DNA of 63,740 nt, counting the filler, from Psammoneis japonica (Eukaryota), in the NCBI GenBank assembly GCA_008632985.1. It is 4 parts of 4 records of this genome, joined end to end, with 100 filler letters (N's around TTAATTAATTAA, not from the genome) between each part and the next. Parts side by side here need not be neighbours in the genome. Positions count along the whole stretch, not along the records: positions 55,157 to 63,740 come from QPGO01000540.1; 3 more parts are not named here. One strand, 5' to 3'. Position 1 is the stretch's first letter. Each line of letters begins with the position of its first letter. Below, piece after piece: positions 11,201 to 62,550 of this stretch. Both the position numbers and the translations under genes were made by a program. The notes beneath the pieces were generated by a model. It saw only the letters and a list, made by a program, of their open reading frames with translations. It was not told the DNA's origin and did no database searches.

Positions 11201-11209
11201 GATGACTTG

Positions 11210-11525
11210 GCGCACTGTGCTTGGAGAACAAGCACAAATGAAAGCAGAGTGGACAACAAAAAGTGGACATTGTGAGACAAATTTTGCTCTGCAATTTTTG
11301 GTTTCTCTGAATGAATTCTCTCAATGGCCCAAAGCATTTGTGCTGCTTCCACAGACTGAAAGGCTTTTCAGAGAATGTGATTGTGACAGCAGATTGTCTG
11401 GGTGTGACTGACACTGCCACCTTGTGTGTCAACATCATCAAGGGATCTTGTTTGCAATTCTCAACATCCAACAATTGTGGACATGTGCACAACTTTCTTG
11501 CTCAACAACACATGTTGCACTTGAA
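11210..11525 (-). repeat. 3' LTR-like direct repeat of the gypsy element (ends approximate)
   Basis: aaaaagtggacattgtgaga...tctcaatggcccaaag...actttcttgct.acaacaca matches 15990-16390. Confidence 0.7.
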
Positions 11526-11555
11526 TTCCTTGCTGCACATTAGAGTCATTCATTG

Positions 11556-11769
11556 AATGGTGTCATTTGACAGATGTTGACAGTGTCAATGATCTCTCAC
11601 CATGTTTGATCTGCACTTGCTGTGCTGTCAGTGTGTGCCATTGTCATTTTGTGGTGGGGCCAAATGGCATCATTTGACAGATGTTGACAGTGTCAATGAT
11701 CTCTCACCATGTTTGATCTGCACTTGCTGTGCTGTCAGTGTGTGCCATTGTCATTTTGTGGTGGGGCCC
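11556..11769. repeat. 107-bp tandem duplication of the integrase 3' end
   Basis: Near-identical units starting aatgg at 11556 and 11663. Confidence 0.92.
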
Positions 11770-14700
11770 AGCATGGGGCTGCTCTGATTTTGAGAGTCTT
11801 TCTCAAGCAATGTCTTTTCTTCTGCTCTGTGCTGCACATGTGAGAGAAGCACATTGAGCATTTTCTCAAGCATTGTTTTTATTTTTAGATTTTCTTTTTT
11901 CTTTTCTAAACAAATTTCCTGTCAGCAAGAACATGTTGGATGTCAAATGTGACATGCCTGTTGAAGACCAACTGTCCTGGTGCAGCTTGCACAGCAGTGT
12001 GACATGTTGAGTGCACTCCAAAGGCCGCTGCTGACAGGATTCCTGTGAAAGGATTCTCTTTGTCTGGAGGTTTATTTTGTAGATCAAATGTGTGCAGCAT
12101 GTTGCCCAGTGCTCAATGCTTGTGCTGAACAATGGTGTCAGCTTGTGGATTTTGGGCACCAGCTGTGGGCCTGCACTCAATGCCACAGTCCTCTTTAACC
12201 ACAGTTCTGAGTTGGTGTTCAGTGAACTCACTTCCACAATCACAAGCAATTGAAGATGGTCAAGGGCACTCACTCAACACCACGTTCTTTCCAGCAGTCC
12301 AGCAACAGTCATGGATTCCTCATTTGGAATTTCTGCCAGTGCTTCAAACAATCCTGTTGCTGGATCAACCATTGTGAAACATTTTGAGACCAGTGGTTTC
12401 TTTCTGCCCTTTCAATGCATTTTGCATGGTTCAATGACATTCACACATCTTCCCCATTGCACTGCTTCCACACACTCAGGAGGCCAATGTTTGTGTTTCT
12501 TCTGTTTCTTTTTTTAAATTTCTGGCATTTTTCACATTTTGACACGCATTTTTCTCATGTCTTTGCGCAAGGCAGACCACCACAAGTGTTGTGAGATTGT
12601 CTCTTTAGCTCCACTCATGGTGCCAAGGTGCACAAGGCATGCATGGTGCACCAACCCATCACTCTGCCTTTTTTGACATCTTTGGCATGATCTTTGTGTG
12701 ACATGTTGCACCCAACAATTTGGAGAGAATGTCCTTGCCCCACTTTTGTTCAGCATCAAGAACTTTGCACGTAAAAATTGAAGGACATTGTTGCAGGATT
12801 TGGGTGCAACATTCTCAGCCAATTCTTCAGCGGCTGCTGAGGTTTTCTGTTTTCTTCACAGTGAGTCAGCTGATTGCATCTGCAATGACACCAGCCTTGC
12901 CCTTTTGAGGTAAATTGTTTTTGAGCTGCATTCTTCTGTTGTCAGATGCCAACACATGACTCTGTTCACAGCAAAATTCCAGTGAGTGAGATTTTTAGGA
13001 CCCACAAATGTTTTCATCTGTTGGCCAAACAGTGTGTTGCAGAACTCTTTTGGATTTTCTGCAAAGGACAGAAGTTCTTCTTCCATTGTGGTGTGGCATG
13101 TCTGCACTCCATTGAGCTTGCAGCTGCAGAAGGCAGTGGGTCTGTCATCTTGTGTTGTGACCACTCCCAATTGAGAATCACTGATGGTGGTGTGCATCTC
13201 AAATGGTTTGTTGCATTTGGGTGTGACAACAACACATTTTTGACATGAAATGCTTCATGTTTTTGAAAGCCTTTTGTTCCATGCTTGTCTGTTGCCACTT
13301 GACCTTGCTTGAGGTGATTTGGCCAGACAAGTGAGTGCATGAGATTGTCAAGGCCAAATGCTCCAATTCCTTGTGAGTGGTGGGAGCTGCAATCACTTGA
13401 ATTGCCTCCACTTTCTCAGGGATTGGTCTGAAGCCATTTCAGGTGATGTGAAGGCCTGGATGGTCCACTTCAGGCTTGGATTAAATAGACTTTTTTTGGC
13501 ATTAACTTTTAAACCAGCTTGTTTGAGCCGTGTGAATGTCATTTTAAACTTGTTCAGGTTGTGTTTGAAGGCACCTTTTATCAGGCACATCATGTCATCA
13601 AAATGAGTTCTGAAAACTCCAAACCTGCCATGAGCTGGCTTGTGTGTTCTTGAAAACATGTGAGGCTCCACAAACATCCACCATGGTGAGTCTGCAGCAC
13701 TCACACTTGCCCCATGGCACACCACAATTGCACACAAGCAACATGCATGTGGTGTTAATTTGACATGGTGGTGTTCCATGTTCAAATCAAGTGAGGTCAC
13801 ATGCATGGACCCTTCTGGTTTTTGCAGCACATCTTCAATGTTGGGCAAAGGAAATGGAGTGTGTCTTGACCTTTTGTTGAGCTTGCAGAAGCCAGGCAGG
13901 AACCAAACTTGACCATTTTTCTTGGGTTGAACAAAAGTTGGAGCTGCCCATTCAGAATGGTTCATCTTTCTCAAGACTTTCAATTTGCATTGTTGGTCCA
14001 CTTCCTTTCAAGCAATTGCCTCCAAGGCTTGTGGCACAGGAAATGGTTTCACGTGACACAGAGTTGCAACCAACTTCAATGCAAAATCTGCTGGTCTTCC
14101 TGTTCATTTTGCCTGAGGCCTGACACACCATCAAAGAGGGGTTGAAACCTTTTTGAGCAAGAAGTTCAGTTGTCTCTGTTCTTCTGGGGCTGGATGAGTT
14201 GCTGCCATGGTGGTCACATTGTTGAGGTCAGCAGCATGACAGTCAGAGTCAAGGATCTTGTTGATCCTGTTGTCAAGGCCATTCACAGCATGAGATTCCT
14301 CAATGCAATTGGCAATCAGCTTGAAAACATCAGGCATCAAAGAATGTGCCAACATCTTTCATTGGTGCAGTTGCATCTTCCCATTTGATTTTGTCATTTG
14401 CAAAGTCTGACATGACTCCAAGACTGCTCATCAAGTTGTGTCCCAAGACCATGTCACATTGACATGAAGAAGAAGGGGTGCTGCACCACATTCTTAATCA
14501 ACTTGTGTTTGTCAAATTCAGGTGATGAAAACTGGATTTTGCATTGGCTGTCAGTCACAAAGAGTTCACCCTTGGTTTCTCAAGTCTTGGTTGCAGATTC
14601 CTCAGTTCTCAATTTCCACATGAATTTGCACAAAATTGTGGTTTTCTGTCAAGAAGAATGTGCAGAGGCTTGTTTTTTGTTTTCCACAAAGAGGTGCTCA

Positions 14701-15989
14701 TGTGAGGAATGATTGCTGGACTGGTGTGAGTTGTTTGGCCTTTTCCTGGGCTTGTTGGTGTCCAGTGATGTGCAAGACTCCTCAACAGGTGCCAGTCATT
14801 CCTCAGAATTGCTGCGAGTCATTTTCTCAAACTGAAACTTTCCTCTCTGAGGGCATCAGTGTCAGAGTCACAACTCTTGCTCTTGCACTCTTGTCCTTTG
14901 TCAAGAAACTTGCCTCAAGTGTCATCTTGACCACCTGGGCAATCAGAGCATCAAAATCTTCTTTTTGAAAGGCATTGTCAGCATTGCAACAAGGCCAGCA
15001 TGTGCGATTGGCATTTTGGACATTGCTGTTTTGGGTTCCATTTAAAATTTTTTGGCATTCTTTTGCCAGTTTTTAATGACCCAGCATTGCTTGGTCCATG
15101 TCATAGCATTTTTTTGCAACAGTTGCACCGCTTGTTGACTTGGGCCATTTGGCACCAGATTGGCAACCATTTTTGGGACCACAGCACCACGGGATCTGTC
15201 CTGGGCTTTAGAGCCAGGCTCAGTGGTGGGCTCAGATTCGACATGGATCTGGTCAAATGATGTGTCCTTGGCAACCTCCAAATGCTCCACAAAATCAACC
15301 AACCTGTCAAAGGTGTGGTCTGAGACTTCCAAACATTGTGGGTTGACTGATGCAAGCATCAAGAAGGTGCAAGGATGATGTTGCAGAGCTCATGTTAAGC
15401 AAGATTTTGCTTTGACTCATGGGGAGGACTGCACTTGAAGTTTTTGTTGACCTCCTGCATTCAAGCAGCAATTTCTTGAATTTTTCATGGTGTCTGGTTT
15501 CTGGAGATCAAGATCATGCTGTGGACGCCTTTTCTGATTTTGAGGAGTGTTCTTGGGGAAGACATGGTTTGAAAGATGCTGAAGACATTTTTCAAAGGCT
15601 CCTTTGTCTTTTCAGTCTTCAACGCTTGTTGCCTTTCTCAAAAACTTGCAGAGTGTCTCCATGCAACAACAACATGTGCACAAGCTGGAACTTGTCAGCT
15701 TGCTTCTGGATGATCTGAAAGTTTTTAAAATTTTAATGTGCTTGGGAACTCCCTGCTTGTTGTGGTGATTGACATCTGTCATGTGGGTGCAGCTTTTCTT
15801 GCATCTTAAGGATGAAAATGCTGCTCCACATCTTGAGGTGCCGGCTTGGTTCAAGCAACTTTGGCGTGGAAATCAAATCCAGTGGCACAGGCACAATCTT
15901 CTCCTGCTTGATCAAGGACTTTGGGTGGATTGGCCACATGAGACAAAAGCTTCATTTTCATGTTTTTGCTTTTTATGGCATTTGTGCAC

Positions 15990-16390
15990 AATGCACAGTG
16001 CTTGAAGAACAAGTGCAAACAGAAGTGGAGCGGATCGCACAAAAAGTGGAAATTGTGAGATTAAAATTTGCTCTGTGATTTTAGATTTCTCTGAACAAGT
16101 TCTCAATGGCCCAAAGTGTTTGCACTGCTTCTGCGCACTGAAAGTCTTTTAGAAAATGTTGTCATGACAACAGATTGTCCAGATGCAATTGACGTTGATG
16201 CCTTGTGTGTCAACATTGTCAAGGGATTGCATCATTTGCAATTTTTGACATCTCACAAACTCTGTGTGATCAATCTGACCTTCATGTGCATGTCCACAAT
16301 TGTGGTGCAATTGACACATGTGACATTGCACAATTGTCAGCATGTGCAAAACTTTCTTGCTTGACAACACATTGTGTTGCATTGGCAGGC
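15990..16390 (-). repeat. 5' LTR-like direct repeat of the gypsy element (ends approximate)
   Basis: Homologous to 11210-11525, with an extra internal segment. Confidence 0.7.
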
Positions 16391-16399
16391 TGTTTGTTT

Positions 16400-18380
16400 T
16401 GCATGCTTTGGTGCAAAAATGGCACCCAAATGACAAAACCAAATCACCAGCCTTTCATTGCTCCGATGCGACCATTGGGTTTTTGTCACATTTGGAGAAC
16501 CAAGAGGCAAGCAGGCCACTTTGGTTTGCTTCCATGCAAATGTGGCAGACCCACATGTGTGCACCAAACTGAGTCACTTTCAGTGCTGAAATGAAGACAA
16601 AAAGACAGATCCTCATGAGTGGAAGGGTTGTTGGCACTTGTTCCCAGCTTTGAGAAGCCTGCCATTTGGTCGTGTCACACAAAAACTCAGCACAGCAATG
16701 ACTTCCTGGGAAAAAATCTGATGAAATTTTCTGGCATTGTTGGCTGCACAAAGCAACAAGGTGTCTGAACAGCTGAGTGGAGCATGCTCCTGTGGCATGT
16801 GGGAACTCTGGTGAGTTCACTTGTTTGGCATGAAGGATGTCTTTCAAGTGCAAATGGTCGCAACATCCTCTTGCCATGTGCTTGAGAAGAAGTGCTTTTT
16901 GTGGCTATGGAGCAGATTGCTGTGCCACATTTGAGTGGCTCAAAGTCTCACAGATGCCCACTCATTGCACTCAAAAGGTTGGCCATGATCATGTGCAAGA
17001 AGCAAGTGAACATGCCACAATCATTGGCCTGAGGAGCTTGGCTTTTGCTGCCAGCTTTAGAAAAGATTGCACTGTGCTCCTCCCAAAAAGAAACTTTGGC
17101 CAAGTTTTTCTCAAGATCTTTGCAGCCACACCCCTGTGTCAACTTGGGAGTGGTGAGAGGCAAAGCAGACAAAAAACCCACTCTTTCAACTGAGTCATGT
17201 GAACCACTGACAAGAAGCAGAAATGCCTGTTGCAAGTCAAATCATCTGCAGCAAATGTTCGAACAAAATGAGCTTTGTTTCTTCAAACCAACTGACCCTG
17301 CCCCATTCCCATCACAAAGGCTTGCAACACATTGCTTGCTCACAAGAACAATGATGTCACACAATCCACACACCAGTGCTGGTGTGTTGTTAAACCAGTT
17401 GGTGTTGGAGTGACAAAGTGAGGACATTGAGATGTCAATGATGAGCTGTGCATGGCATGCCAAAAGCCCACCTTGGCTCCACAGTGTGGTCTGCCACAAA
17501 TGTTGGAAGAAAGGTGATGATCAGCAAATCCAGCTTTGAAACATGCATGAGTTTGCACCACCCCTGCACAGTGCTCTGGGTGTTGGTCATTGAGCGCTTT
17601 GCAGCACACTTTGCATTGACTCTGTGTGCATCATGCAGAGTCATTTTCCTTCATGTGCTCACATTGTCCCTGCATCAGATTGTGGTGCTGCTGCTGCTGC
17701 TTGCCCTCTTCATTTGCATGCCTTTTCATTGGCAACAGGAGCACTTTGCATATTTTGTGTTCCTTTTTTTTGACAGATGCGGGAGTTGAGTGCAATGAAA
17801 GTGCAAACAATTGGTGCATCAAGGTCAGTGTGTGTTGTCAAAACATCAACTGTTGAAGCCTTTTCATTGCCTGTTTTAAAAAGGATTTGAGGAGTGATTT
17901 GGCAGAGCTCCATGCTCTTCCCATCAAGAAGATTGGTTGACTTCACAGGAAAAACGACCAACCACCTGCTGGTTTTTCATTCCTTGAATGCCTCAGTTTC
18001 TTGCACAGCTTGCATTAACAAAATTGGCTGCTGGCAGCTTGGAAGTCACCATTTGTTGCCTTGATGGCATTGGGCAGTCTCTCTCATGCTGTTGCTGGCA
18101 CAAAAGAACTCATTTTGCAATGGATTCAATCTCTGACCTGCTCTGGGAGGTTGCTGCAGTTCTTTGTCTGGGTGGCAAGAAATCTGATGTCAACATTGAG
18201 GCATGAAGACCCACCATGGTCCTGGCAAACCAGGCCATTTGGTCCTCTGGAGTTTCCAAAATCAATTCAGGGCATTCAGCACCTTGGATTCCTTCCAATG
18301 CGGGAGTGGTCTTGGAACCAAATGGCAGCTTGGGCACTTGGGAACAGTGGGTGTGTGGCAGAGCTTGTGCAAGATTTTGC
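16400..18380 (-). mobile_element. Decayed transposon-like sequence with a possible Ulp1/C48 protease remnant
   Basis: 16948..17235 contains PQANDCGMFTC, resembling the Ulp1 Q.N..DCG.F catalytic motif. The region is TA-depleted. Confidence 0.35.
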
Positions 18381-23485: not shown

Positions 23486-23519
23486 CGCTTGGGTGCAATC
23501 TTCTCATTTCTAATCACCA

Positions 23520-25200
23520 TTGTTCCAATCGTCAAGCTTTGATCAAAGAGTCAATGCATTGTTTGCACTTGTGCAGCCGATGCAGCTGCTTTGGAGGCTT
23601 TTCCGAGGCCACGCTTCAAAGTGGTTGTTCAGGCACAGTGCCTTTTCGTCCGCTGCAATGACGTGAGCCATGGCCAAAGCTGATTCTGGCACAAGTGAGA
23701 TGGAGTCAATTCCTTGTTCCACAAGAAATGTGGCAATGTTGTTGGGCTCATTGCTGGGGAGCTTGTCGGCAAAAGCCAGTGAGTGCCACGATGTGAGCCA
23801 GCGCTGGCTGCTCCAGCAGCTGACTTTGCCGCAGGGCTGCTCTTGTCAAACAGCCTTTCCAGCTCACTGTCATCATTTTCTGAACCAAAAAAAAGCTGTG
23901 CCAAGTCATTGAGTCCATTGAAAAAACAGTCAAAGAGAGCAGTGAAGTCATCAGCAGCTGGGGTGCTGGCAGGGGCTTCACAGCACACTGCACCCCAAAC
24001 TTCGAGGGTTTTTTGTTGCCCTTGCTTTGGCCCCCTCTTGGCAAGAACATCAGTCACAACACAAGGGAACAACAAGCTCTGCATTGTTCAGGCACCTGCT
24101 TTGTTTTGAGCATGAGACAGACCCTTGTGCTCAAACTCAAATGTGTTTTTGAGCTTTTGGCAGAGACATCACACAGCTCTCCAAGAAGCCAGCTCCAATT
24201 TTCTTCATCCAGCTCAAAGACCTTGCCACTCACAAGACAACAGTGCTTGTTTGGTTTGAAGCTGCTGGGGTGAACAACAGCCAGGTGAGGATGAAAGGGA
24301 GCAGTGGCACCCCCCCACGCCTTTGGAGAGCTTTTCAATGAAAAAGTGCTGGGGGTGGGAATCATTTCAGGCTTTTTCACAAACCACCACACACAACAGC
24401 CTCACTTGCTCAATTGAGAAAGATCACCAAATTTGGCACAACCACAGAACCTTGGTGAGCTGGCCCAACTCCAGTGATGGACAGATGACAGCTCAAAAGA
24501 GCAGAGCTGGGATCTCCCAAGATGGAGCTTTGCCCTGGTTTTGGAAGGTCATCAATGCTGAACTCAGTGTGCTGAGTGTCAGCAACTCCATGGTGGGTGA
24601 ATCTGCTGCTGCCATTGAGCCAGTTTGTTGCACACAAATTGCCAGCTTCAGGAGAGTTACAGGGATGAACAGCGCAGGTTTGCTTTCATCCAACACAGTG
24701 GTTGATGACAGCAGGATCCTCTGCTTTTTCAACTGTGGGTTTGAACAGCTCTGGTGCTCATTGGGGCCCCATCTTTCTGCCAACAATGGACTGTCAAAGA
24801 CCACACAAGCTGGCAACAACAGCAATGCAATGAAATCCCACATGTCAGGGTTGAGTGCAAAGGCAGTGCCCAAACTTGCAGCATCACTCCACACCATTGT
24901 CAGGTGATGGTGCAACCAGCAGATGCTCTCCAGGATGGCATCTGCCGCTGCCGCTTCCCCCCCAGCAACCTCACTTGAAGATGAGGCTTGCTGCCTGTCA
25001 GAGGATGTGTGCAGCTGTCAGATCTTCAGCGGTTTCCAAGCTCTGTGTGGCAATGGAAGTTTCCACACATTGCTGCCACACACACTTTCATGCACCACTT
25101 CAGCATTTTGTGAATGACATCTTTTTGCCATTTTTGCTCAGCTTTGCAGCTGCACCATGCTGACTTGCACTGCAATGCCCAATGCCACAACATTGGCATT
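23520..25200. mobile_element. Decayed unclassified repeat block
   Basis: Abrupt switch to TA-depleted composition; only Tyr-free ORFs. Confidence 0.4.
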
Positions 25201-28170
25201 TTTTGGTGTGTGCCTCATGTTGCACATGCACACATTCCCACATGACTTTGGTGGCATTTTGCATCATTTTGCAGTCACATGCATTGCTCCCAGCACACAA
25301 ACATTGGATCTTGTGGGCAGAACTCATTGGGCCCACATCACATGGAGTCCTGGCTGGGGCTGAAGTGTGCACATCAGCAGAATTTTGTTTCTCTCACTGG
25401 CAGAGGACCTTTCTTCTATGCACATGCTGACCATGCAATGCACTTTGCTGCCTCAAGATGAGTTGTCAGTGTTGGAGATTAAAAAAGAACAAACAGGGGG
25501 TGCAAAACACAGTGAGCCACACTGCCCTGTCTTTGAGCAATGCACAAACAACAGCAAGGCAGAACATGTGCTCACACACACCACCTGGCTCCAGCCCCTC
25601 TTCAGGCCAAAAGAAGGCCAAGCTGTTCTTGCAGATTGCTTTGATTGAGAACCATGCTGCAGGTGCTGGTTGTTGTGGCAAATCCATCACAAAAACTTGC
25701 ACCCCAACTGGTGCCAACTCTTGAGCAAGCTTGCTGAGATGGAAGGTGTCAAGGGCTGGGCCTTGATCAACAAGTCCATTGCTGTGAAGGCTTGTGCTGC
25801 ATTGAGCCAAACAACCCTTGAAGCAATTCTGGCAGAAATTGTTGAAATGGTCAGAGTGACCCACACATCCAATCATCATGGTGGAAACCAGACAAATTCT
25901 TTTGCCAACAGGAGTCAAGGAACCAACTCCAACAGAAGAAACCAACAGCCCAACACTGCATGTCCCGTGCACAGCATTTTACAAGCAGCATCAACAAAGC
26001 TGTGCCAACCGTGGTCAACAATGGCAAGGCTCCAACAGTCACAACCAGAGCAATCAGAAGACTCAGCCAAACCATCAACACAATGCAAGGAGTTGTTCTC
26101 ATCAGTTGGGAAGAGAACAATCAAGTTCAGAGTCAACCTGCTCATTCAACTCAAGTTTGTTTGTTTGTTTGTTTGAACCCAAGCAATGCTGACAGCACAT
26201 TGTTGCAAGACATCAACAAAATCTCTGATGTGTTTGAAGTGATGAGCACTGTTCAAGAGCCCCAACCAAAAGTGCTGGACCCTGCAACAACTGCAAAAGT
26301 GACAGCTCAGTTTCTCAATGATGGAACAGGCCAGAGCAAATGTCACCTTGGCCTGCTCAACACTGGGGCACGTGGTGATTTTGTCAAGCGTGATGCACTC
26401 AAGTCTGTTCCTCATTCCATCAAAGGGGCTGTGGGTGCAAAAGTCAATGGAGGGTGCAAAGCGATCAAATCTTCCCAGCTTCCCAACATTGAAGTCAAGC
26501 TTCTGGAATTTACAAGCATGAAGAAGCATCTGCCAATGCTTGCATCAAAGAGAAGCAAGGCAACTGGGTGCCTTGATGTTGTCATTGGCGCTGCTGAGCA
26601 CACCAAAGCAATGGCATTGTCCGCAACTTCAAGACAGACTGCCTGTTGCACAGGATGATGTTGCTGTCCCAACGTGTCCAGAAGGGTTGATGGACCAAAA
26701 CAAGGCTTTGCCTGACTTTGTGCTGGCTGCCACACAATGTCAGACTTGCACCATTTGAAGCAATGAGTGTGTGAGCAGCTCAGTTGTCAGAAGATGGCAT
26801 CATGGTGCAATGATTTGACAGCAGAAAGTCAAAAAGAAGATCTGTTGGAATTGATTGGATGTCATCCCAGTTCAGTTGATGAAGCTCTTTGTGAAGCTCC
26901 TGGACCTCTGAACATGCTCTGAGTCAAGCCTGGTGCTGAGCCTTGTTGTGCCAGAGCTTGTGTCATTCCTCAAGCTCTTTGTCCCATTGCAAGGGAAGAA
27001 GTTTTGATGAGCTTGAAATTGTTGGCATTGTTGCTTGCAATGTTGCTTTTAAGTGGGGCAAGCCATGTTTGTTCTCACCAAAGGAAAACAGTGGAGTCCA
27101 ACATGTCTTAACCAACTTGAAGCACCCCAACTCATGTCTCACAAGTCACCCTCATCTGATGTCAAACCCTGATGATGTGATTTGGAAAATCAACAGGTTT
27201 GCATGGGTGCTTGCTTTGATCTCAACCACATGGCCATCATCATTCTTTTGTTCTTGACTGCCAGTCAAGCAAGCTCTGAGCAACCATCTTGCCATGGGGC
27301 AAGTGTTGTCAGCCACCCTCAACTCCCTCAAGGAGCCACGCCTTCAAGAAGTGACATCTTTCAAGCTTTTGTGAGCCAGTGCTTTGGTGATGCAGAAGAC
27401 ACCGCTGCTTTCTTTGACAATGTTCTTTTGTTTGCAAAATCAGCCTTTGTTCAGCACCTTCTTCAAAAACTTGTCAAGAATGACCTTTGCACACACATTG
27501 AAGGAACTTTTCTTGCTGGTGCCAAGGTTGGCATTTTTGGGACATCATGTCAAAAGGAAGGGTGTCACGCCTCAGAAGCAGAAAATTGTTCCCATTTTTT
27601 TGCTTTGCTTCTCCCAAAAACAGAAGTCAGCTGAGGTCATTTAATGGATTCACAAATTTCCATGAGAAATTGTGGCATTGCAAGAGACACACACCACGAC
27701 ACCTCTGATGGCTGTGGTCACTCCCAAGATCAAGCTCAAGTGGTCTGAAGTCAAAGAGCAATCTTTCCAAGCCATGAAGAAAATCATTGCTTGCCAAGTC
27801 TTGTTGCACTTTCCTGATTTCAGCACAACTTCTGCATCTACCCTGGTGCAAGTGACTGTCAACTTAGCACCACCACAATTCAAGTGTTTGAAGATGGCAA
27901 GTGGCCCATTGCACTCTGCAGTCACAAATTGTTTGAAGCTCAGTGCAGCAGAGAAGGAGTTGCTGTCCATCATCAAAGCAATGAGTGCACTTCACTTGGC
28001 TGTTGTTCAGTTCAAGTCAGAGCACATCAAACACAGGCGGCACCTCTTGTTGGAAGAGTGTTGCTGCACTTTTGAACACTGTCCTGGCAAGGACAATGTC
28101 ATCACCAACAGTTTGAGCCACCGTCCAGTGATTGATCATGTCTCCACTGATTGCTTTGAAGAAGCCATGA
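25200..28170 (+). mobile_element. Degenerate Ty3/gypsy element (gag-PR-RT-RNaseH; integrase missing)
   Basis: PR HLGLLNTGA (~26345). RT PCLFSPKENSG, CFDLN, LPQG..DIFQA, FFDNVLLF. RNaseH VLLHFPDF, EKELLSII, LLLEE...FEHCPGKDNV. Confidence 0.85.
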
Positions 28171-30200
28171 CCTTGGGCTGTCTGGCTGGGGAAGCAAGTG
28201 CTGCGGGTGTGCATGCTTTTTTTGTGCATGTGTCCTGTTCTCATTTCTCAGTGATCTTCAGATTTTTCTCTGTCTTTTCATCAAGTCATTTCAGTGGCTT
28301 GTCTCTTTTGCAAAACAAGTCTTTTCAATGACTTGTTGCATGTGTCTGGGCTTGGTTTGCATTCCGCACAATTCTGTGAGATGTCCAAGAGAGCAGCTCC
28401 AAGGGACCTGTTCTGTCTCATCTCACAACTCAAGCATCTGGGTGGTTGAGCCTCATTTCACTCACAATTGGCCTCTGAGGACAATTCATTTTTCATTTCC
28501 ATGTGTGCTTCCTCCACATTGTCAAACAGCACAAGTGTTTCAGTCAGTTTTGTGGACAAAGCAGTGAAACAGGGTCCAAAGTTGATGCCATCGTGTGGGC
28601 TGAGTTTCGCTTCTTCTCTCACGTGTCTTCTTGAACTCAAGTGCCGCCAACGAATGTTTTGCACAATCTGTTGTGCACAATTTGTGCTCACATGTTCAAA
28701 CAAAACACCACTTGTGTCTTGTTCAAGAGCCAACTTGTGTGCAAGAATGCGTGCTTTGTGTTTTTCTTTTGGGCATCGCAGCAGCTGCAAATCGCTCATC
28801 AGAAAACTGAGCTCTTGTCTCACAGCTCCACCCCATTTGGTGATTGATGGCTTGGTGCATCATCAGTTGTGAATGCATGGGTGCACACATGAGACCTTTC
28901 CATGTGCCCACAACAACACATTTGAAAATTGTCATGTCTCAGCTGTTGAAAATGGTGCCTCAAGTTCAGACAACGCGTTTCATGCTAAAAGGGTCATTTT
29001 TTTTCGTGCAAACACACACCCAAGTCTGGAACAAGTCTCAAGTGGAGAGTGGAAGGAGCACTTGCTTGAAAAGGTGCCCTTGTTTTTGCCACTCACAGCA
29101 AAGCAGCTGCCCACACCAGCGTTGGCAACACAGTCTGTGCGCACATTGTGGGGAAGTGGGGCCAAAGGAGGGCACACAAGAGGAGAGAGCTGCCAGGGGG
29201 TGGCAACCTTTGCGGCTTCCACTTGCCAATCATTTTCACTGTGTGCCTTTTTTCCCACTTCTCACAGTGCAAAAGATTCATTCCAAAAAAAGTGCAAGAC
29301 ATCATCACCCGCTTCAGTCGTGACAACAGGTGGCCGTGTCGATTTTGTGCGGCGGCGATTGGCCCGGTTTTTTCATTCATTCGGAACCCGGAACAAGGCA
29401 TTCCAGTGCGTCAGGCTCGCTCGCGAGAGGACGCACAATGACGTCAGAAAGATCAGATCGAATGAATCTTTCTGAGATTCTCGCGAAACAAGCTCGCTCG
29501 CACGCAGAAGTCTGCGGGCCCAATGTCGCACGGATTCCCACCTGCGTCTGGAACGCGTCTGCTCCCATTTCTTGTCTCCCAGTCCTGGACAAACTCTCCC
29601 TCACTTGCTGGCAAATCAAGTGCTCTGTTGTGTGCAGTGATCTTTCTGTTGTTTCATTTCTTTGAGGTTTGAACGAGGTTTTCCACTTGATGAGCGACAG
29701 CCTGTGGTTTGGCACTCTTCCTTTGACTTCCTTTTGGCTTCCTTCATGGCTCTCATGTGAATTTTTCCCAAATGCAACTGTCCTCTGTGGTGGTGGTGTA
29801 ACCAACGTGTGTGTCACCAGCAATGCCACATCAAACTCCAAGTGTTGTGTTGTGCTCTCTGCACCAACTTTTTCCGTCGGGCGTCTCCTCAGGGAGACGC
29901 CAGTTCAGGCCAATCGCGTGTGTTTCTGCCACATCTCCAAGCGGGGTGCACTGGAAGTGTGGGTCAGCTGGCGCCAGTGTTGCTGGGCAAAGGTGCAACA
30001 GCACTTAAAATTGGGTTTGTTTTTTTTTCCTCACCGACCACAGTGCGGCGTGATGTGCTGGTGCTCAGTTTCACGGCGTTCTTCTTTTTGCGTCATTCTT
30101 GCGCGAGTTCGCAGTGACGTCAGAAAGATCGGATCGGATGAATCTTTTGAGATTCCTCTCCCTCCGACCTCCGAGGCGACGCACGACGCACGGCATCACA
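28170..30200. mobile_element. Decayed repeat mosaic including a right-end remnant (29430-29559) related to the GAC-TIR family
   Basis: ctcgcacgcagaagtctgcgggcccaatgtcgcacggattcccacctgcgtctggaacgcgtc matches the MITE right end. tgacgtcagaaagatc.gatcg.atgaatctt occurs at ~29439 and ~30115. Confidence 0.6.
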
Positions 30201-30309
30201 CCATGACATAGACGCACTTGAACACACATAACGCTGTTTTGTTTTTCCAAGACTTGACACTTACACCAACACTTCCTTGACTAACACACCTCTCATACGT
30301 GTGTCTTGC

Positions 30310-33300
30310 ATGTTGGCAGTGACTGTAACTGTTTTTGTGATTTTTGTTTCATATTTCAGTACCGCACAAGCTTTTGTTGTTGTTTCACATCATACGCTCG
30401 TTTCTGCAAAGAAAAAGTATAATTTGACTGAATTGAAAATGACAGACGATCACCACAAGTTCCATTTCGCCATTGACCGGGGCGGAACCTTTACCGATGT
30501 TCACTGTAAGCTCCCCAATGGAACAGAACTTGTTTCCAAATTACTTTCCGAAGACCCCATGCACTACAAGGACGCTCCCACCGAAGGCATTCGTCGCATT
30601 CTCGAACAATACGATACATCCACTTCCTATACTCGTGGCAAACCCGTCTCGACGCAATCGATTGGAAGCATTCGCATGGGAACGACCGTGGCGACCAATG
30701 CCCTGTTGGAACGGGACGGTGCTCCCATGGCTCTCGTCATTACCGACGGTTTTGCCGATTTGCTCGAAATTGGAAATCAAGCACGAAGTGACATTTTTGA
30801 TTTGACCTGTGCCAAACCAAGTCTCCTGTACAAGGATGTGGTGCAAATTCAGGAACGGGTCGTGTTGGAAAATTTCGTCACGAGTGAATCGGGTCTAGGA
30901 GAGGGAGTCTCGTCCCACGAGGGAATTACCGGTGAATCGGTACGAGTTTTGCAAGCTCCCGATTTGGACCAAGTCAAAAAGCAGTTGCAATCCTTGGCCG
31001 ACAAGGGTATTACCAGTATTGCCATATGTCTCATGCATTCCTTTGCCTATCCACAACATGAAGTCATGATTGGTGATTTGGCCAAGAGCATGGGTTGCTT
31101 TGATCAAATCTCACTTAGTAGTTCCGTCATGCCCATGATCAAGATGGTGAGTCGTGGCCACACGGCGTGTGCTGCGGCGTACCTGACACCCAAAATCACC
31201 TCCTATCTATCATCCTTTCAACAAGGCTTTGATGAGAACTTAAAGAATGTGGCATTGACCTTTATGAAATCCGATGGTGGTTTGGCACCGGGTCCACGAT
31301 TTTGGTGGACACCAGGCAATTCTGAGTGGACCAGCCGGAGGCGTTGTGGGATATGCCAAGACATCGTATCATCATCAAGATGACGATATGCCCGTGATTG
31401 GATTCGATATGGGAGGTACATCGACTGATGTATCCCGATATGATGGCTCGTGGGAACTCGTCTTTGAAACAACAACTGCTGGAGTGGCTATTCAAGCGCC
31501 TCAACTGGACATCCACACGGTGGCAGCCGGCGGTGGATCTCGATTGTTTTTGAAACGAGGCATGTTTATCGTGGGTCCAGAATCGAGTCGAGCCCATCCT
31601 GGACCCGTCTGTTATCGCAAAAATGGGTACTTGGCAGTGACGGATGCCAACGTCGTGCTCGGCCGAGTCATTCCAGAAGAATTCCCAAGCATCTTTGGAC
31701 CCAACGAAGACGAGCCACTGGATTTAGACGGAGCCAAGCAAGCGTTTTTAGAATTATCCTCGCGTCCCGAAGCTCAAGGACGATCGGTAGAAGAGTTGGC
31801 CTTTGGTTTTTTGCAAGTGGCCAATGAAGCCATGTGTCGTCCCATTCGAAACTTGACACAAATGAAGGGACACGATATCACCACGCACAAGTTGGCGTGC
31901 TTTGGTGGTGCGGGTCCGCAGCATGCGTGTGCCATGGCCAAGGCATTGGGAATTTCCAAGGTATTTGTTCATCGTTACGGGGGTGTACTCTCGGCCTACG
32001 GACTATCCATGGCCGATGCAGTTCATGAAGAGCAAGAGCCGACGGCACAAGTATATGCCAACAAGGACGGGAGTCAAGTAGACCCTAACGGAACGGTTCG
32101 AAATGAACGATTGGCACTCTTGGGTGAAAAAGCTCAAAAAGCTTTGGAGGAGCAAGGTTATGAAGCCAAAGACATTGTATTGGAGCGCTATTTGAACATG
32201 AGGTACGATGAAATTGGTAATATCTTCAGCTCATTCATTCCTTGTTCTTGTCTCAATCCTGTCTCTCATTTTTCATATACCTCTGCTTGGTATCGTTTGA
32301 ATGTAGGTACGAAGGAACGGACAATGCGATAATGATTCAAGAAAGCACAGATAAGAGTTACGGCGAATGCTTTGCTGCACAATACTTGAGAGAGTTTGGT
32401 TTCAAGTTGGAGGGACGAGAGATACTGATTGATGATTACCGCGTCCGTGCGGTTGTTCCGGGCCATTCGCCTCCTCAAAACGCAAAGCCTACATCGTTGG
32501 GTAGTCCACCTGCAACAGGCAAGACCCGCACCTATTTTGAAGACGGGTGGCGAGAAGTATCTGTCTATCGAATGGAAAAACTACAACCTGGACACGAAGT
32601 GGCGGGTCCAGCCATTATCGTACAAGAGATTAGTACCGTGGTGTTGGAAGTCGGTTGCACTGCCTTTGTCACGGCGGATGGTGACTTGGACATTACCGTC
32701 GACCGAGCTGTGGACCACCATGGCGATNGAAACAAATCTGCCGACGAAATAAGGAGGATCCGGTACAGCTATCCATCTTTTCTCATCGATTCATGGGTAT
32801 TGCTGAGCAAATGGGTCGAACACTTGCACGGACCGCCATTAGCGTCAATATGAAGGAACGACTGGATTTCTCGTGCGCTCTCTTCACCTTGGACGGTGGT
32901 TTGGTGGCAAACGCTCCGCACATTCCGGTTCATTTGGGTGCCATGCAGTCGGCAGTTCGCTTTCAAGTAGAGTACTGGAACAGCGAGGGTCGAGAGGGAC
33001 TTCAAGAAGGCGATGTGCTTGTCTCCAACCACCCTCAGCTCGCAGGCGGATCTCATTTGCCAGATATTACTGTCATTACGCCTGTGTTTTTCAAGGGGTC
33101 CATCATTTTCTTTGTCGCAAGCCGTGGCCATCATGCCGACATTGGGGGTATTGCTCCCGGTTCCATGCCACCTCATTCAACCAGACTGGAAGACGAGGGT
33201 GCCATGATTGTTGCATTCAAGCTTGTCAAGAGTGGCAAATTCCAAGAAGAAGGTATTACCGAGATACTAGAAGCCCCTGGAAAGTTAAAAGGCAACTCTG

Positions 33301-34346
33301 GCACCCGCAACTTGCGAGATAATCTGAGTGACTTGCGAGCTCAAGTCGCTGCCAATAATTCGGGTATCCGCCATTTACAAGAGCTGGTCGAGGAGTATGG
33401 TCTTGGCGTCGTTCAAGCGTACATGGGCTTTATTCAACACAACGCCGAAGGATGCGTTCGTACCATGTTGAAAGAGTTTGCAGAAAAGCATGGCTCCCGT
33501 GCTCACGCAATCGATTATATGGACGATGGAACTCCGATTGAATTGACAATTACAATCGACAAAGACACCGGCAGTGCCTTGTTTGATTTTACTGGTACAG
33601 GTCCACAAGTCTACGGCAATCACAATGCTCCACCCGCCGTGACGTACTCGGCTGTCATTTACTCGCTACGGTCTCTTGTTGCCCAAGATATTCCTCTCAA
33701 TCAGGGTTGCTTGGCGCCCATTGAGTTTGTGATTCCCAAGTATTGTCTCTTGAATCCGTCGTCGGACGCCGGTGTCGTGGGAGGAAACGTATTGACAAGT
33801 CAACGCGTGGTGGACGTTGTACTCAAGGCATTCAAGGCTTGCGCTGCGAGTCAGGGCTGTATGAATAATTTGACCTTTGGCGACAAGGAGTTTGGATACT
33901 ACGAGACGATTGCCGGGGGCGCCGGAGCTGGAAGCACTTGGAATGGTCGCAGCGGAGTGCATACGCATTGTACCAATACTCGTATTACCGATCCGGAAAT
34001 TCTGGAACGTCGATATCCCGTCTTGTTGCGACAGTTTGCCTTGCGTCACGGTAGTGGAGGGAAGGGACAACACAAGGGCGGCGACGGCGTCATTCGTGAA
34101 ATCCAGCCATTACGTCCTCTCATTATGAGCATTCTCAGTGAACGTCGCGCTCTTCATCCCTATGGCCTTGACGGTGGTGAGGACGGTGCTTGTGGAATCA
34201 ACTTGCTCGTAAAGGAAAATGGTATTGTTGTCAATATGGGCGGACGGTGCAGCGGTACAATTACTGTTGGCGAACGACTTAGAATTGTAACTCCCGGTGG
34301 TGGTGGATGGGGCAAATACGAAGCCTCAGGGGAAATGAACAGTTAG
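30310..34346 (+). CDS. OXP1: 5-oxoprolinase (ATP-hydrolysing; hydantoinase A+B fusion); intron 32203-32306; apparent indel errors near 31290 and 32730-32760
   Basis: [95 protein letters not shown] intron restores MR/YEGTD. Alternative start at 30439. Confidence 0.95.
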
Positions 34347-47344: not shown

Positions 47345-48412
47345 GGCGGTATTGCGATGAAACTTGCTGTTACGAGGCATTGGAGTGTAAATACTCGGAT
47401 GGCTTTTGTTGTGTGAAGTGAGGTGTTTTGGATTACATCGAGCACACCGGGCAAAAGTGCAGATTGGACTGCGAATGTTTCAATTTGCGTTTTGTTCTGC
47501 TGCGGCGTACATAGCATTGGATTCATGGCATGATGTTGGCTTATTGCGTTGTGCGTCGCCGCAAGTACAGTAGAAACATTATTGAGACACCGTAGATATA
47601 ATTATCCTGGATACTCCCATAGCAGCGAAATTCATTTACAAATACTTTCTTGTCTTACGTGTCAGAGAGCAGCTGTGCGGCGACATCGGCATCACATCAC
47701 GATAATGTGACAAAGCGTTGGACGCCGACTGTAAGATCAAACATGGTCTTGCGAACGAATAAGACCAAAAAGTGAAAACGCTAAATGACGTTTTCCGGTT
47801 TCGTCTTGATACGAAAAGGACAAAAACTTAGGGGTGATTTCTGTCATAGAGTGATTGCTTCTTGGGTCTATCAGTAATTTTTTTATTCGCATATTTACAT
47901 GTACATAAATTAATTCATAAGCATTGTTGCTGGAGTCACAATAATGCACATAGAATCTGATTGAATGTCTTATAGCCCTTGAGGACATGAAGTAAAGCCA
48001 CCACCTTTTGCTCGCGTCCCAAGAAGATGATCAACCACAATGAGAACTGGAGGTCCACATGGTCTGACAACAACCGTCGGGACACCGACTCAGCCTCACT
48101 CTCAACACCCCAAAGTCTCTGAAAAAAAAAATCATGCGCCCCGCAGCCCAATCTCTGGTGGAGCGTCCAAGAGGCGCTGGCTTGCTGGAAGCAGCTCTCT
48201 TTTCTCGCTCGTTTCCAGTGCTTTTGCTGTGGTTCTGAGCAAGAAGGCTGCAAAACAAAGACCTGAATTTGCTTGCAAAGTTCAAAGGGTTGGCATGTTG
48301 TTGCCTCAAGGATGACTCTTCCACAAATTAGACTTGGACTGCTGCTCTGCCACTTTGACTTGCTTCTTGCTTTGACCAGGCAACAAACAGTGTCTGGCCA
48401 CTGCCCGTCAGC

Positions 48413-48802
48413 GACGCGTTCCAGGTCTAGGTGGGACCTCGTACTACTGAACTGTGACATCGATAGTTTTTTGAATCACGTCGTATGTCGCGCACGTAGA
48501 TTTCTACGTGATTTTTTCGATATTTTGTGTCATTTTACGGTACACTTATTGAGCGATCCGTCCAACAACTTTTGACATTTTTTGTTACAGCGCGATTCTA
48601 TAATGTCTTAAGAATCGCGTAGGGCAGGCGCATTTGCAAAAACGTCGAGTGGCAAGAGGCATAATTGTGCCACAAACTTGGCAGTTTATTTGATGTTGAA
48701 GATAAATATATCCATTAATTAAATTCTCGTACTACGGAGCTCGCACGTAGAATTCTACGGGCCCAATGTCACACGGAGTCCCACCTAGGACTGGAACCCA
48801 TC
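48413..48802. mobile_element. MITE copy 1 (390 bp), TpA intact; ~25-bp TIRs; 4-bp TSD CAGC
   Basis: cagc|gacgcgttccaggtctaggtgggac ... gtcccacctaggactggaacccatc|cagc. Confidence 0.9.
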
Positions 48803-48806
48803 CAGC

Positions 48807-55055: not shown

Positions 55056-55156
55056 CNNNNNNNNNNNNNNNNNNNNNNNNNNNNNNNNNNNNNNNNNNNN
55101 TTAATTAATTAANNNNNNNNNNNNNNNNNNNNNNNNNNNNNNNNNNNNNNNNNNNN
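55056..55156. other. Assembly gap with TTAATTAATTAA linker (55101-55112)
   Basis: N-run with linker. Confidence 0.97.
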
Positions 55157-55484
55157 GCAGCTGTGGCTGTGCGTGACAACATGTGCATGAGCCACAACCT
55201 GACCAAGGTTGCACAAAGCTGGTTTGCTTTTCTCTGCATGGCTTTTTGACTTTGCTCATCCCCTCCTCACAAAAGCAAGCCTTTGTTTGCTTGCCCTGCT
55301 GCTTCTGCTGCTGCCCACCTTGTCCCAGTGCATGCTGGAGGTCATTTCTGTCCACCTCAGATGCTGTGACTTCCACTCTTTTCATCTTTTTGTTGCTGTT
55401 GCTGCTCTGGCTGCTTGCTGCTCTGACATGCAGAGCTGCTTTCTGCTGCTGGCACTGTTCCTTTTTGTTGGTCTTGGCAAAGCA

Positions 55485-55875
55485 GACGTGTTCCAGGTCC
55501 AGGTGGGACCTCGCACTGCTGAACTGTGACATCAACAGTTTTTTGAATCACGTCGCATGTCACGCACGTAGATTTCTGCGTGATTTTTTCGACATTTTGT
55601 GTCATTTTACGGCGCACTTGTTGAGCGATCCGTCCAAAAACTTTTGACATTTTTTGTTGCAGCGCGATTCTACAATGTCTTAAGAATCTCTGCAAGGAAG
55701 GCGCACTTGCAAAAACGTCGAGTGGCAAGAGGCATGATTGCACCACAAACTTGGCTGTTTGTTTGATGTTGAAGACAAACACATCTGTTGGATGAATTCT
55801 TGCACTGCGGAGCTCGCACGTGGAATTCTGCGGGCCCAATGTCACACTGAGTCCCACCTGGGGCTGGAACGCGTT
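55485..55875. mobile_element. MITE copy 2 (391 bp), TpA-eroded; TSD AGCA/GGCA
   Basis: Colinear with 48413-48802; agca|gacgtgttccaggtccaggtgggac ... gtcccacctggggctggaacgcgtt|ggca. Confidence 0.9.
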
Positions 55876-59400: not shown

Positions 59401-61247
59401 AGATCACAGAGCAAGAAGTTGAGTTAATCCAGAAGTCTTTTAATGTGATGATGGATGCACAATTGATGTTTGGCAAGGCACCTGAGACGCTCTTTGATGA
59501 ACTCGGGTTTCCCGAGGACGAGGCTGCTGACAGCTCAAAGTGACCGAGACGTTCCGAGTCAGACGCACACTCCCGCGCCATGTGTCTGTCAGCGGACAAA
59601 GTGCGAAAGGCAAGAGTTGAGAAGATGCTTCTAGAGGCAAGGAAGAAGCAAGTCCGTCTTGAGCAAGAGAATGCTGCCATCAGCAAGCTCCTGGCTCTCA
59701 ACAAAGAAGTTGAAGACAAGCTGCCAGCAGACCGATCGACAGCAACGCACCAGTTTCTCTTTCAAAATTTTAAAGCTCCCCAGCTGGGAGCCTTCGTCCA
59801 TGCACGTCTGTTTGTCACGGGCAAGAAACCAAGGAATGCTGAATGGAATGGCATGAAATTCAAGAATGTGAACAAAGGCACACCGGCAATGGCGGAGATG
59901 GGAGAGGACAATCTGTTGACACGTGCCAAGTTGCTGCTCAATGATCCTGTTACATTGAGGGAAAAGGAACCAGAGAGCACAGAAGATGAACAGAGCAACA
60001 TCAACTCCACTCCATCTGTCGTTGATGCTGCTCACACAAATGAATCAGGAGCCCTGGATGCACCACCAAAAGGTGACGACCTTTTAGGCGATGATCGCTG
60101 GATGTCCTCGGTCAAAGAAGAGATCCAGGGTGCGACGTTTCCATCAGGAACAATCGACCCCGCTCTCCCTGGTCATGTTGACAGCCTTGTGTCACATCTG
60201 TGCCTTCGCCTTGACCGTCACCTAAAGACAAGATTCCCAGACCCTGCGCATTGGCATCACTGGTCGTTCCGTTGGGCAAGGCGGAACTCCAGCAGAGTGG
60301 CGGCGATGGCTGCACTCGGAGGGCACGTGAAGAACGATTTGGCCTCAAAGCAACTCTCTGATTCTCTTTTGAATGTGAACATTTCTCGTTTTATGGAAAT
60401 TGACGAGACTTCTTGCATTGCAGGCTCTTGTCTGTTTTATGATGAAGAGAACGGGCGGTTCGTGAGATCGGGCAAGGCAACCTGTCAAACAATGTGGGAG
60501 CGGCATTTGGAACACAGAGCCAAATCCATGAAGGAAGAAAAGGGCTTGCATGAAGCTCACCCTGACAAAGGCAACAAATGTGTCAAACACAAAATTCGAA
60601 AAGGCTTTTTCGAGCAGCTGAAACTTGTGGCGGCCTTGGGTTTCCTCGACTTGAACACGTCTGCGCTTGAAGACACGTCTGGTGATGGCATTTTTGACTG
60701 GGACGACAGCACTCTTGACAACATGAAATCATGGAAAGCCACAGGGACAATGAAGGAAAAAAAGCTTTCAATGGTTGGGTTCTCATTTGAACTTGCACAT
60801 GACTTGATGATCGCGCCGTCGGACAACGTTTCGGAAAACCCTGGATTCGAGCCATGCCACGGTTACATTGGGCAAGATTGAAGGGCGGGGAGAGCAACTC
60901 AAGTAAAAAGCAAAGAATGCTGTAGTTGTTTCATTTAAAATGGCACCCATCATGGCTGTGGCATGGGTCCATCACTTGTGTTGGGCGTGTTGACAGAGTG
61001 CAAGCGCATTTTACATTGTGCGAGTTGGGTGCATTCTCTCTGCGACGCTGCTGTTTTTGTGCGTGTGTTGGTTGGAGCTCATCAGCTCTGGTGCAAAATG
61101 TGCGTAGCTGGCTACAGGGGAATGAGTGTCTTCTGTCGCATTTTCTCCAGATCGAGCGCTTCATCTGACAACTGTTTTTTCCTGACGCGCATTTTTTCCG
61201 CGCGCAGCCAATGACACAAAAAGTCCCACCCAGGGCTGGAACCCGTC
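56464..61247 (+). mobile_element. Full-length 4.78-kb TIR DNA transposon, parent family of the MITEs; 4-bp TSD ACTG
   Basis: actg|gacgcgttccagctctaggtgggac ... gtcccacccagggctggaacccgtc|actg. The left ~360 bp is homologous to the MITE. Confidence 0.9.
57378..60881 (+). pseudogene. ~1167-codon transposase-like frame with three in-frame stops (pogo/DDE_1-like core, GIY-YIG-like C-terminus)
   Basis: ORFs 57378..58331, 58347..58664, 58686..59543 and 59580..60881 are in one frame. Motifs GRRPL, STDNS, WQDGGGPQ, SRSATEQCADLMRIF. Confidence 0.7.
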
Positions 61248-62456: not shown

Positions 62457-62550
62457 TTTCAACAAAAAACTGTTGAAACTTTGAAGTTTCAACAAAAAAA
62501 CTGTTGAAACTTTGAAACTTTGAGGAGTTTCACAGTCGTTGTTGAAACTA
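62457..62550. repeat. Short tandem/inverted repeat gtttcaacaaaaaactgttgaaactttgaa (2 copies plus partials)
   Basis: Seen directly; each unit contains inverted gtttcaac/gttgaaac. Confidence 0.75.

Follow-up and report, generated by a model that had tools for sequence, protein, structure and literature searches.

Why does one copy of a short repeat in the genome of the diatom Psammoneis japonica carry 28 TA dinucleotides and a second copy only four, and which of the two has changed? The copies, M1 and M2, lie in the 63,740 nucleotides analysed here (the window), which are made up of four contigs with artificial linkers of the form N...TTAATTAATTAA...N between them, at 18381-18481, 36813-36913 and 55057-55157; because M1 is on another contig than M2 and the related element M3, the apparent '7 kb' spacing between M1 and M2 is artificial. 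We read the two copies, together with the rest of the window, as the outcome of regional hypermutation of TA to TG and CA, and we put the probability of this reading as a whole at roughly 0.8. The features on which the argument draws are collected in Table 1.

Table 1. Features of the window used in the analysis; positions count along the whole window.
Feature	Position	Strand	Basis or remark
T1: TA-keeping paralog of T2	2195-2941
T2: middle member of 2.68-kb tandem gene triplet, TA-stripped, 0 Tyr codons	4749..5999	-
T3: TA-keeping paralog of T2	7567-8898
TA-poor and CG-poor example block	9001..18380	.	TA and CG o/e ~0.03-0.15
RT/RNase H relics in TA-poor blocks	12859-14007 and 27666-28328		Pfam
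PEP-synthase relic, TA-poor block	23632-24087	-
M5: very old copy; TA and CG both turned to TG/CA	~25190..25376	+
M4: 3' fragment, old copy; CA at palindrome site where M2 has TG	29441..29563	+
5-oxoprolinase gene, TA-normal example block	30232..34346	+
NDC10_II (Crypton-type) domain, TA-poor block	37786-38571		Pfam
Putative 4-bp target-site duplication of M1, CAGC, left copy	48409..48412	.	right copy 48803-48806
M1: young TA-intact MITE copy, 390 nt, 28 TA	48413..48802	+	repeat-depth limits, TA counts
M1 5' terminal inverted repeat (TIR), 30 nt	48413..48442	+	80% complementary to 48773-48802
M1 3' terminal inverted repeat	48773..48802	-	pairs with 5' arm
HAD phosphatase gene	53598-54563
Artificial contig linker (N run, TTAATTAATTAA, N run)	55057..55157	.	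separates M1 contig from M2 + M3 contig
M2: old TA-stripped MITE copy; 4 TA, 23 CG remain	55485..55875	+	alignment, TIR arms
M3: TA-rich related element, serves as outgroup	56464..~56825	+	alignment
M6: 3' TIR fragment; CA at TIR site	61204..61247	+

TA is lost selectively between two copies of one element

We aligned M1 and M2 with MAFFT and counted the changes, and found that at the 28 TA sites of M1, M2 has 11 CA, 12 TG, one CG and four TA, exactly the figures that the first-pass annotation had proposed as approximate. All four TA of M2 are also present in M1, and M2 has no TA of its own. The two copies differ by 46 substitutions over 390 aligned positions, 25 of them at the 56 TA bases and 21 among the remaining 334 (Fisher p = 3.5e-12), and the changes at the TA bases of M1 are A>G (13) and T>C (12) and nothing else (25/25). 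It had also been claimed that CpGs and other positions are mostly unaltered, and this holds, in that 20 of the 26 CG sites of M1 are intact in M2 and CG bases are altered at 6/54 versus 15/280 at other bases (p = 0.12); the three example strings quoted for the pair are present in the sequence. Divergence outside TA is ~5-6% (15/280 other bases), so a steady TA rate 15-30-fold higher suffices and bursts are not required. By itself, the M1-M2 pair is uninformative on the ancestral state.

M1 and M2 are separate insertions of the same non-coding DNA transposon, a MITE present in very many copies in the diatom nuclear genome. Like M1, M2 has terminal inverted repeats, with arms at 55486-55509 and 55851-55874 (24 nt, 88% complementary), and the core motif of these repeats occurs seven times in the window versus 0.04 expected. 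M1, the one intact example, is flanked on both sides by CAGC, and M2 has AGCA and GGCA at the same places (3/4 match). The inverted repeats, the length of 390 nt and the longest stop-to-stop ORF of M1, which is 53 aa, agree with the earlier description of the element as a non-coding MITE; the ORF of 132 aa in M2 exists because TAA/TAG stops were lost.

The family is also seen in sequencing run X1, in which 90% of the sampled 31-mers of 45900-49000 are present at a depth of ~30 and whose contig pieces were matched to 48300-48920 at a likeness of at least 80%. We found that 3026 pieces match the MITE region (421, 844, 1184 and 577 at >=99, 95-99, 90-95 and <90% likeness, respectively, the pieces being short). 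Summed word depth is 75,000-590,000 on the MITE versus 29.9 on the left flank of M1; it rises in the 48405-48425 bin and drops after the 48783-48803 bin, which are the ends of M1. The family numbers in the thousands of copies, word depth being a rough measure and not a copy count. The X1 shares given below are likewise word-depth sums rather than copy counts, and X1 may be the assembly's own data and so non-independent.

Copies or fragments of the MITE inside the window are the six of Table 1 (M1-M6) only. M3 shares its terminal and subterminal parts with M1 and M2, differs from them in its interior and has no 3' TIR. We found no autonomous relative with a transposase within the window and, by Rfam search of the window, no family. 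A metagenome scan yielded no locus for the pattern of the palindrome region and 78 loci for the TIR pattern, 77 of them without further likeness to M1 (nhmmer); locus L035 has a TIR-like end (E = 8e-4) on a short sequence.

TA loss is regional

TA is distributed over the window as a mosaic. The histogram of observed/expected (o/e) TA over 500-bp windows is bimodal (68 of 122 below 0.2, four at 0.2-0.3 and 50 at 0.3-0.9), with 59% of the 500-bp windows below 0.25, and block edges are sharp, such as 17 TA in 23001-23500 versus one in 23501-24000. Pooled TA-poor DNA (36.2 kb) has o/e values of 0.07 for TA, 0.37 for CG, 1.74 for CA and 1.68 for TG, and pooled normal DNA (22.9 kb) has 0.59, 0.96, 1.19 and 1.19, respectively. 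The process of TA loss is regional and not genome-wide.

The MITE copies help to order these events in time. M1 has 28 TA in 390 nt versus one TA per 200-nt flank, and both M1 and M3 are TA-rich islands in TA-poor flanks; we read these insertions as having arrived after their surroundings were stripped. The left flank of M1 is TA-poor and, at its depth of 29.9, single-copy, so DNA that is not repeated is also affected. Relics of mobile elements lie in TA-poor blocks (Table 1); among 67 ORFs of at least 130 aa, five have a Pfam match. The PEP-synthase relic matches PDB chains at E = 4e-5 over 62 residues, an alignment too weak for polarising Tyr positions.

A uniform genome-wide bias against TpA, with genic TA kept by purifying selection and with neither regional targeting nor a role in defence, would fit the near-equilibrium look of the TA-poor DNA (o/e 0.07) and would make M2 simply older than M1, for which the 15-30-fold TA rate is enough. 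It accords poorly with the sharp block edges and the bimodal histogram. Moreover, TA at codon 3|1 junctions stands at 0.5-0.76 of expectation in conserved genes (observed/expected 12/22.9, 11/20.0 and, in the C part, 33/43.4 in 5-oxoprolinase; 18/25.2 in the HAD phosphatase) versus 0.1 in T2 (4/31.2), and TA is kept in gene-adjacent stretches in which no conserved gene was found (o/e 0.72-0.85 in 34501-36000; 36 TA in 47501-48000). We regard a uniform bias as improbable.

TA loss is not the only decay in these regions. CG o/e is 0.04-0.15 in the blocks with retrotransposon relics and 0.4-0.8 in others, and CG loss is slight in M2. Decay of CpG to TpG and CpA is a second, separate and slower process in part of the same regions. 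TA loss resembles CpG decay through deamination of 5-methylcytosine in methylated domains in that silent or repeat DNA loses a YpR dinucleotide, one that is its own complement, to TG/CA, strand-symmetrically and as a domain mosaic; it differs in the dinucleotide and the base concerned, and since M2 has lost 86% of its TA and kept 20/26 CG, the two processes are separable and the one at TA is faster.

The direction of change is from TA to CA and TG

The direction of change is TA to CA/TG, opposite to that of RIP. Since the interior of M3 cannot be aligned to M1 or M2, M3 serves as outgroup to M1 and M2 together. We found that M3 has TA at 11 of the 13 reliably aligned TA sites of M1 (those where M1 and M3 are locally at least 70% identical) and the state of M2 at 2/13, which bears out the claim that M3 keeps TA at most common sites; over all TA sites of M1, the non-homologous interior of M3 included, the count is 14/28. 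The other copies agree. At the first TA site of the 14-nt palindrome CGTAGAATTCTACG, M1 and M3 have TA, M2 has TG, and M4 and M5 have CA; at a site in the TIR, M1 has TA, M2, M4 and M5 have TG, and M6 has CA. Since a single transition turns TA into either TG or CA, and two are needed between TG and CA, such multi-state sites point to a TA ancestor.

The family as sampled in run X1 has the same three states. At 48707/8, T>C makes up 35% and A>G 33% of depth, and at 48709/10 the shares are 37% and 30%, which leaves about a third TA at either place. At 48668/9, where M1 itself has TG, the family has T>C at 43% and G>A at 75%, from which TA must account for no less than 32% of depth; M1, too, has therefore lost at least one TA. 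Among the variants listed for the MITE, A>G and T>C account for 21 places each versus nine for C>T, eight for G>A and 18 for transversions. A family consensus of CA or TG, which the first-pass annotation had named as the sign of the reverse direction, appears at five aTA sites, where the depth-weighted majority is CA (58-83%, among the variants listed) and taken alone fits a CA ancestor; at other sites TA, CA and TG stand at about a third each. Because of these other sites, the TA kept by M3 and the context rule described below, the CA majority at the aTA sites reflects advanced, strand-biased decay and not a CA ancestor.

The genes of the window point the same way. The TA-normal blocks hold conserved genes, so the TA-normal composition is the unmutated state. 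These genes are 74-89% identical to proteins of other diatoms; for 5-oxoprolinase, the closest named matches, at 80-82%, come from diatoms, against 69% for the first match outside the group, and for the HAD phosphatase every named match is a diatom (69-81%).

An independent comparison comes from the tandem triplet T1/T2/T3, whose copies are 85-95% identical and of which only T2 is altered. Among its 82 private changes, T2 has 30 TA>CA/TG (15 and 15) and 17 CG>TG/CA, and in its frame, which lacks tyrosine codons, seven Y>H and five Y>C changes are seen relative to T1 and T3. The three copies cannot be rooted alone, and outgroup homologues were therefore added. A word-index search with the T1 protein gave no match at E <= 1e-5; an exhaustive search gave 439 homologues, of which the best 40 were aligned. 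Three of the columns in which T2 has lost Tyr are aromatic in these 40 outgroups (Y in 37/40; Y in 25 and F in 6; F in 21 and Y in 19), one column has Cys in 23/40, as in T2, and the remaining columns are variable. Five T1 homologues and T3 gave no Pfam family above threshold. Tyrosine loss in T2 thus agrees with the M3 outgroup and the multi-state sites that TA is ancestral and TG/CA derived, as had been proposed.

The opposite, RIP-like course would start from a CA/TG ancestor, with M1, M3, T1 and T3 gaining TA by repeat-triggered C-to-T change at CpA/TpG. Diatoms carry RID-related DNMT4 genes, a point in its favour. By its abstract, PMC9998398 deals with the diatom DNA methyltransferase repertoire. 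It can also draw on the CA majority at the five listed family sites, on nine apparent TG/CA>TA singletons on the T1 branch, which count against TA loss, and on the fact that the M1-M2 pair alone gives no direction. Even the RIP-like course requires A>G and T>C changes, since one and the same site can be TG in one copy and CA in another, and it has to explain TA in the outgroup M3 at 11/13 sites and a T2 without Tyr where the 40 homologues conserve Y/F. RIP makes TA, yet 59% of the 500-bp windows lie below 0.25 and it is the conserved genes that are TA-normal. Nor does duplication as such trigger the process, because T1 and T3 were spared although duplicated and the single-copy flank of M1 was affected. 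What remains in common with fungal RIP (Neurospora) is that dinucleotide-specific transitions ruin transposon copies and leave a readable TpA/CpA/TpG imbalance; RIP is C>T at CpA and makes TpA, whereas here A>G at TpA destroys it. We consider the RIP-like direction largely refuted.

The preferred target is TAY

The target is the A of 5'-TAY or, read from the opposite strand, the T of 5'-RTA, the two being one base pair; the preference is strong and not absolute. With such a target, RTAY is exposed on both strands and YTAR on neither. We found that the 172 TA surviving in TA-poor DNA comprise 102 YTAR, 65 RTAR/YTAY and 5 RTAY, and the 924 TA in normal DNA comprise 140, 487 and 297, respectively (chi-square p = 1e-39). 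Per kb, survival is ~1% for RTAY, ~8% for the one-sided sites and 46% for YTAR.

The rule also predicts which product forms at one-sided sites. From M1 to M2, YTAY gave TG seven times and CA never, and RTAR gave CA four times and TG twice, so that 11 of 13 sites changed in the predicted way. On the T2 branch, 6/8 strand-asymmetric sites did so, as did 10/10 one-sided family variants among those listed, a set that overlaps M2 and is therefore not independent. At the YTAR sites of M1, 4/5 are altered in M2. The first-pass annotation had treated TpA sites as a uniform target; conversion at TpA stands, and the equality of all TpA gives way to a preference for TAY/RTA.

Two other patterns were considered and set aside. 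Mutagenesis at WA of the Pol-eta type does not match, since AA is not depleted (o/e 1.28 in TA-poor and 1.11 in normal DNA). Strand coordination within M2 was suggested by its RTAY sites (CA 6, TG 0, CG 1), but YTAY gave TG seven times and the family is symmetric at 48707-48710; the sample is too small to carry a claim.

The context rule bears on whether selection, and not mutation, removed TA. Several transposon superfamilies have TA as their target, and the step is a flexible one in DNA; it might be purged from non-genic DNA because it is read by a nuclease, in transposon targeting or in nucleosome positioning. The strength of selection required per site is implausible across thousands of junk copies and a pseudogene, the replacements are solely transitions to TG/CA (25/25 changes at TA bases), and the strand rule TAY>TGY is a context preference of the kind expected of an enzyme or a lesion. 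Selection is a very unlikely cause. Modified bases cause systematic errors in some long-read assemblies and the window is a concatenation of contigs, but an artefact, whether miscalled modified TA or chimeric or foreign TA-poor blocks, is scarcely credible given the 31-mers found in run X1, the coexistence at high depth of TA, CA and TG at the same MITE sites, the contiguity of TA-poor and TA-normal blocks within single contigs and the recognisable diatom-type repeats and relics inside TA-poor blocks.

Relation to known systems and possible agent

TpA-specific DNA hypermutation has been described before, as far as the literature searched goes, only in a preprint on the chlorarachniophyte Bigelowiella natans; titles and abstracts yielded nothing that links diatoms with it. 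According to the main text of that preprint, 231 of 302 mutations in mutation-accumulation lines fell in two integrated viral regions, and 230 of these 231 were A>G/T>C, all on TpA, at ~1000x the background rate and in some lines only (Mettrop et al., bioRxiv 10.64898/2026.01.13.699255). The genome of B. natans has 124 clusters that are TpA-poor and CpA+TpG-rich, with Rho 0.45 in an NCLDV region; among its coding sequences, those poor in TpA show an enrichment of DDE and RT domains, and an ADAT2-like deaminase is proposed as the agent (same preprint, main text).

By that account, the two cases share A>G/T>C change only at TpA, on DNA, giving TpG and CpA, in confined regions with the rest of the genome normal and with long-term TpA-poor, CpA+TpG-rich traces in transposon and RT sequences. 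They differ in host, which here is a diatom (Stramenopiles) and there a rhizarian, and in extent, as ~59% of the window is affected, the greater part of the non-genic sequence included, with TA o/e down to 0.0-0.1, as against the 124 clusters and the Rho of 0.45 reported. The targets here are MITEs, retrotransposon relics, a tandem gene copy and single-copy intergenic DNA, and those described for B. natans are giant-virus and virophage inserts. The preprint reports de novo events, whereas the diatom case is known from its long-term sequence trace alone; the TAY rule is seen here, and the main text of the preprint makes no mention of a wider context.

In the hypermutation reading, M1 would be a recent copy close to the active sequence, and M2 an older one that has passed through hypermutation at the DNA level, in which A:T is converted to G:C at TpA steps. 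As TA is self-complementary, hits on either strand yield TG or CA about equally. The near 1:1 ratio of TG to CA, earlier taken as an argument against codon selection and RNA-level editing, is found both in M2 (12 TG versus 11 CA) and in TA-poor DNA at large (CA 1.74 versus TG 1.68). The targets range from DNA transposons and retroelement relics to a gene copy and spacers, a spread that excludes reverse transcription of edited RNA as the general cause. The process would have brought ~59% of the window to a TA o/e of ~0.07, taking in intergenic DNA, retrotransposon relics, old MITEs and T2, and the agent may be an enzyme directed by a silent chromatin state or by recognition of foreign DNA.

Our working hypothesis for the agent is a DNA-acting adenine deaminase, which would turn A into inosine that is read as G; we hold it tentatively, at somewhat short of even odds. 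Such an enzyme would have an HxE...PCxxC core and a tRNA-deaminase-like preference for T-A-Y and be of the kind proposed for B. natans. In tRNA, the A34 edited by TadA or ADAT is, to our knowledge, always preceded by U33, and in bacterial tRNA-Arg the edited A34 is followed by C. TadA and ADAT2-ADAT3 likewise make inosine that is read as G, and their U33-A34-C context resembles T-A-Y. ADAR prefers a 3' G, and a 3' purine is disfavoured here; hence, by the 3'-pyrimidine rule, a tRNA-deaminase-like enzyme fits better than an ADAR-like one. Unlike the agent sought, TadA/ADAT and ADAR act on RNA. The trace would look identical if, instead, the thymine at RTA carried a mutagenic modification, since the base pair involved is the same, and sequence by itself does not tell the two apart.

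Implications

TA-free DNA lacks TAA/TAG stops and so contains long spurious ORFs, and TA stripping makes transposon relics unrecognisable and distorts ages based on divergence. The MITE family provides thousands of natural reporters with a known starting sequence, and the TAY/RTA rule narrows the hunt for the enzyme or modification. A natural nuclear-DNA adenine deaminase, if true, would be of interest to base-editing research.

Finding the B. natans signature in a diatom, and on a much larger scale, argues that TpA hypermutation shapes genomes more generally, in at least two SAR lineages. More speculatively, and in our view rather doubtfully, diatoms and chlorarachniophytes would share an old chromatin-directed defence that edits adenine in DNA and recognises 5'-TAY. 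Here it would have rewritten more than half of the non-genic genome, so that silenced transposons, pseudogenes and spacers would all have lost their Tyr codons and TAA/TAG stops, and its enzyme would amount to a natural base editor of adenine in nuclear DNA.

MITE copies and their surroundings

The palindrome CGTAGAATTCTACG, which M1 (the young, TA-intact MITE copy) shares with M3 (a related TA-rich element), reads as broken CGTGGAATTCTGCG in M2 (the older, TA-stripped copy), and in M4 (a 3' fragment of an old copy) we found it altered symmetrically to CGCAGAAGTCTGCG. Summed depth was 200-560 in the right flank of M1 (48804-48920) vs 29.9 in the left flank; hence, M1 adjoins, or lies inside, another, older repeat. 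In a 1.1-kb public metagenome contig (L035:560-625), a sequence like the MITE 3' TIR (…AATGTCACAAAACGTCCCACCTGGGGCTGGAAC) closes a TA-rich stretch and is followed by TA-poor DNA. This locus may be a related element from another organism.

Table. Features of the window
Feature	Position	Strand	Details
Tandem triplet	1500-9400	-	2.68-kb unit; T1 2195-2941, T2 4749-5999, T3 7567-8898
RT + RNase H relics, LTR-type retrotransposons	12859-14007	-
	27666-28328	+
Artificial linkers	18381-18481, 36813-36913, 55057-55157		N runs flanking TTAATTAATTAA, a six-frame stop linker
5-Oxoprolinase gene	30232-34346	+	Four overlapping ORF pieces
NDC10_II domain	37786-38571	-	E=2e-14; block TA-poor, CG moderate
Perfect 14-nt palindrome	48743-48762 (M1), 56800-56819 (M3)		Subterminal
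Three long ORFs in a row	57357-60881	+	324/292/445 aa; within TA-poor DNA
AT-rich, TA-rich island	61500-62700		GC 0.34-0.37; surroundings TA-poor

The AT-rich island carries direct repeats of the 'gtttcaacaaaaaaactgttgaaactttgaa' type; it could represent a recent insertion or, alternatively, a promoter region. Around the LTR-type relics, observed/expected ratios were ~0.03-0.15 for TA and CG alike, and these blocks are probably methylated in addition to TA-edited. The NDC10_II match may be a relic of a Crypton-type tyrosine-recombinase element. The linkers connect four contigs (18380, 18331, 18143 and >8583 nt); spacing and synteny across them are artificial.

Genes and open reading frames

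In the representative library we counted 439 homologues of the unnamed protein family that the tandem triplet encodes; no Pfam family was found for it. The middle copy of the triplet, T2, is TA-stripped and its Tyr codons are all gone; the frame remains open because TAA and TAG cannot occur. The 5-oxoprolinase gene is split over several ORF pieces, which implies that it has a few short introns or changes of frame.

The three long ORFs had no Pfam matches. Since TA-free sequence is without TAA and TAG stops, they are probably spurious, and such long ORFs of TA-free DNA would mislead gene finders.
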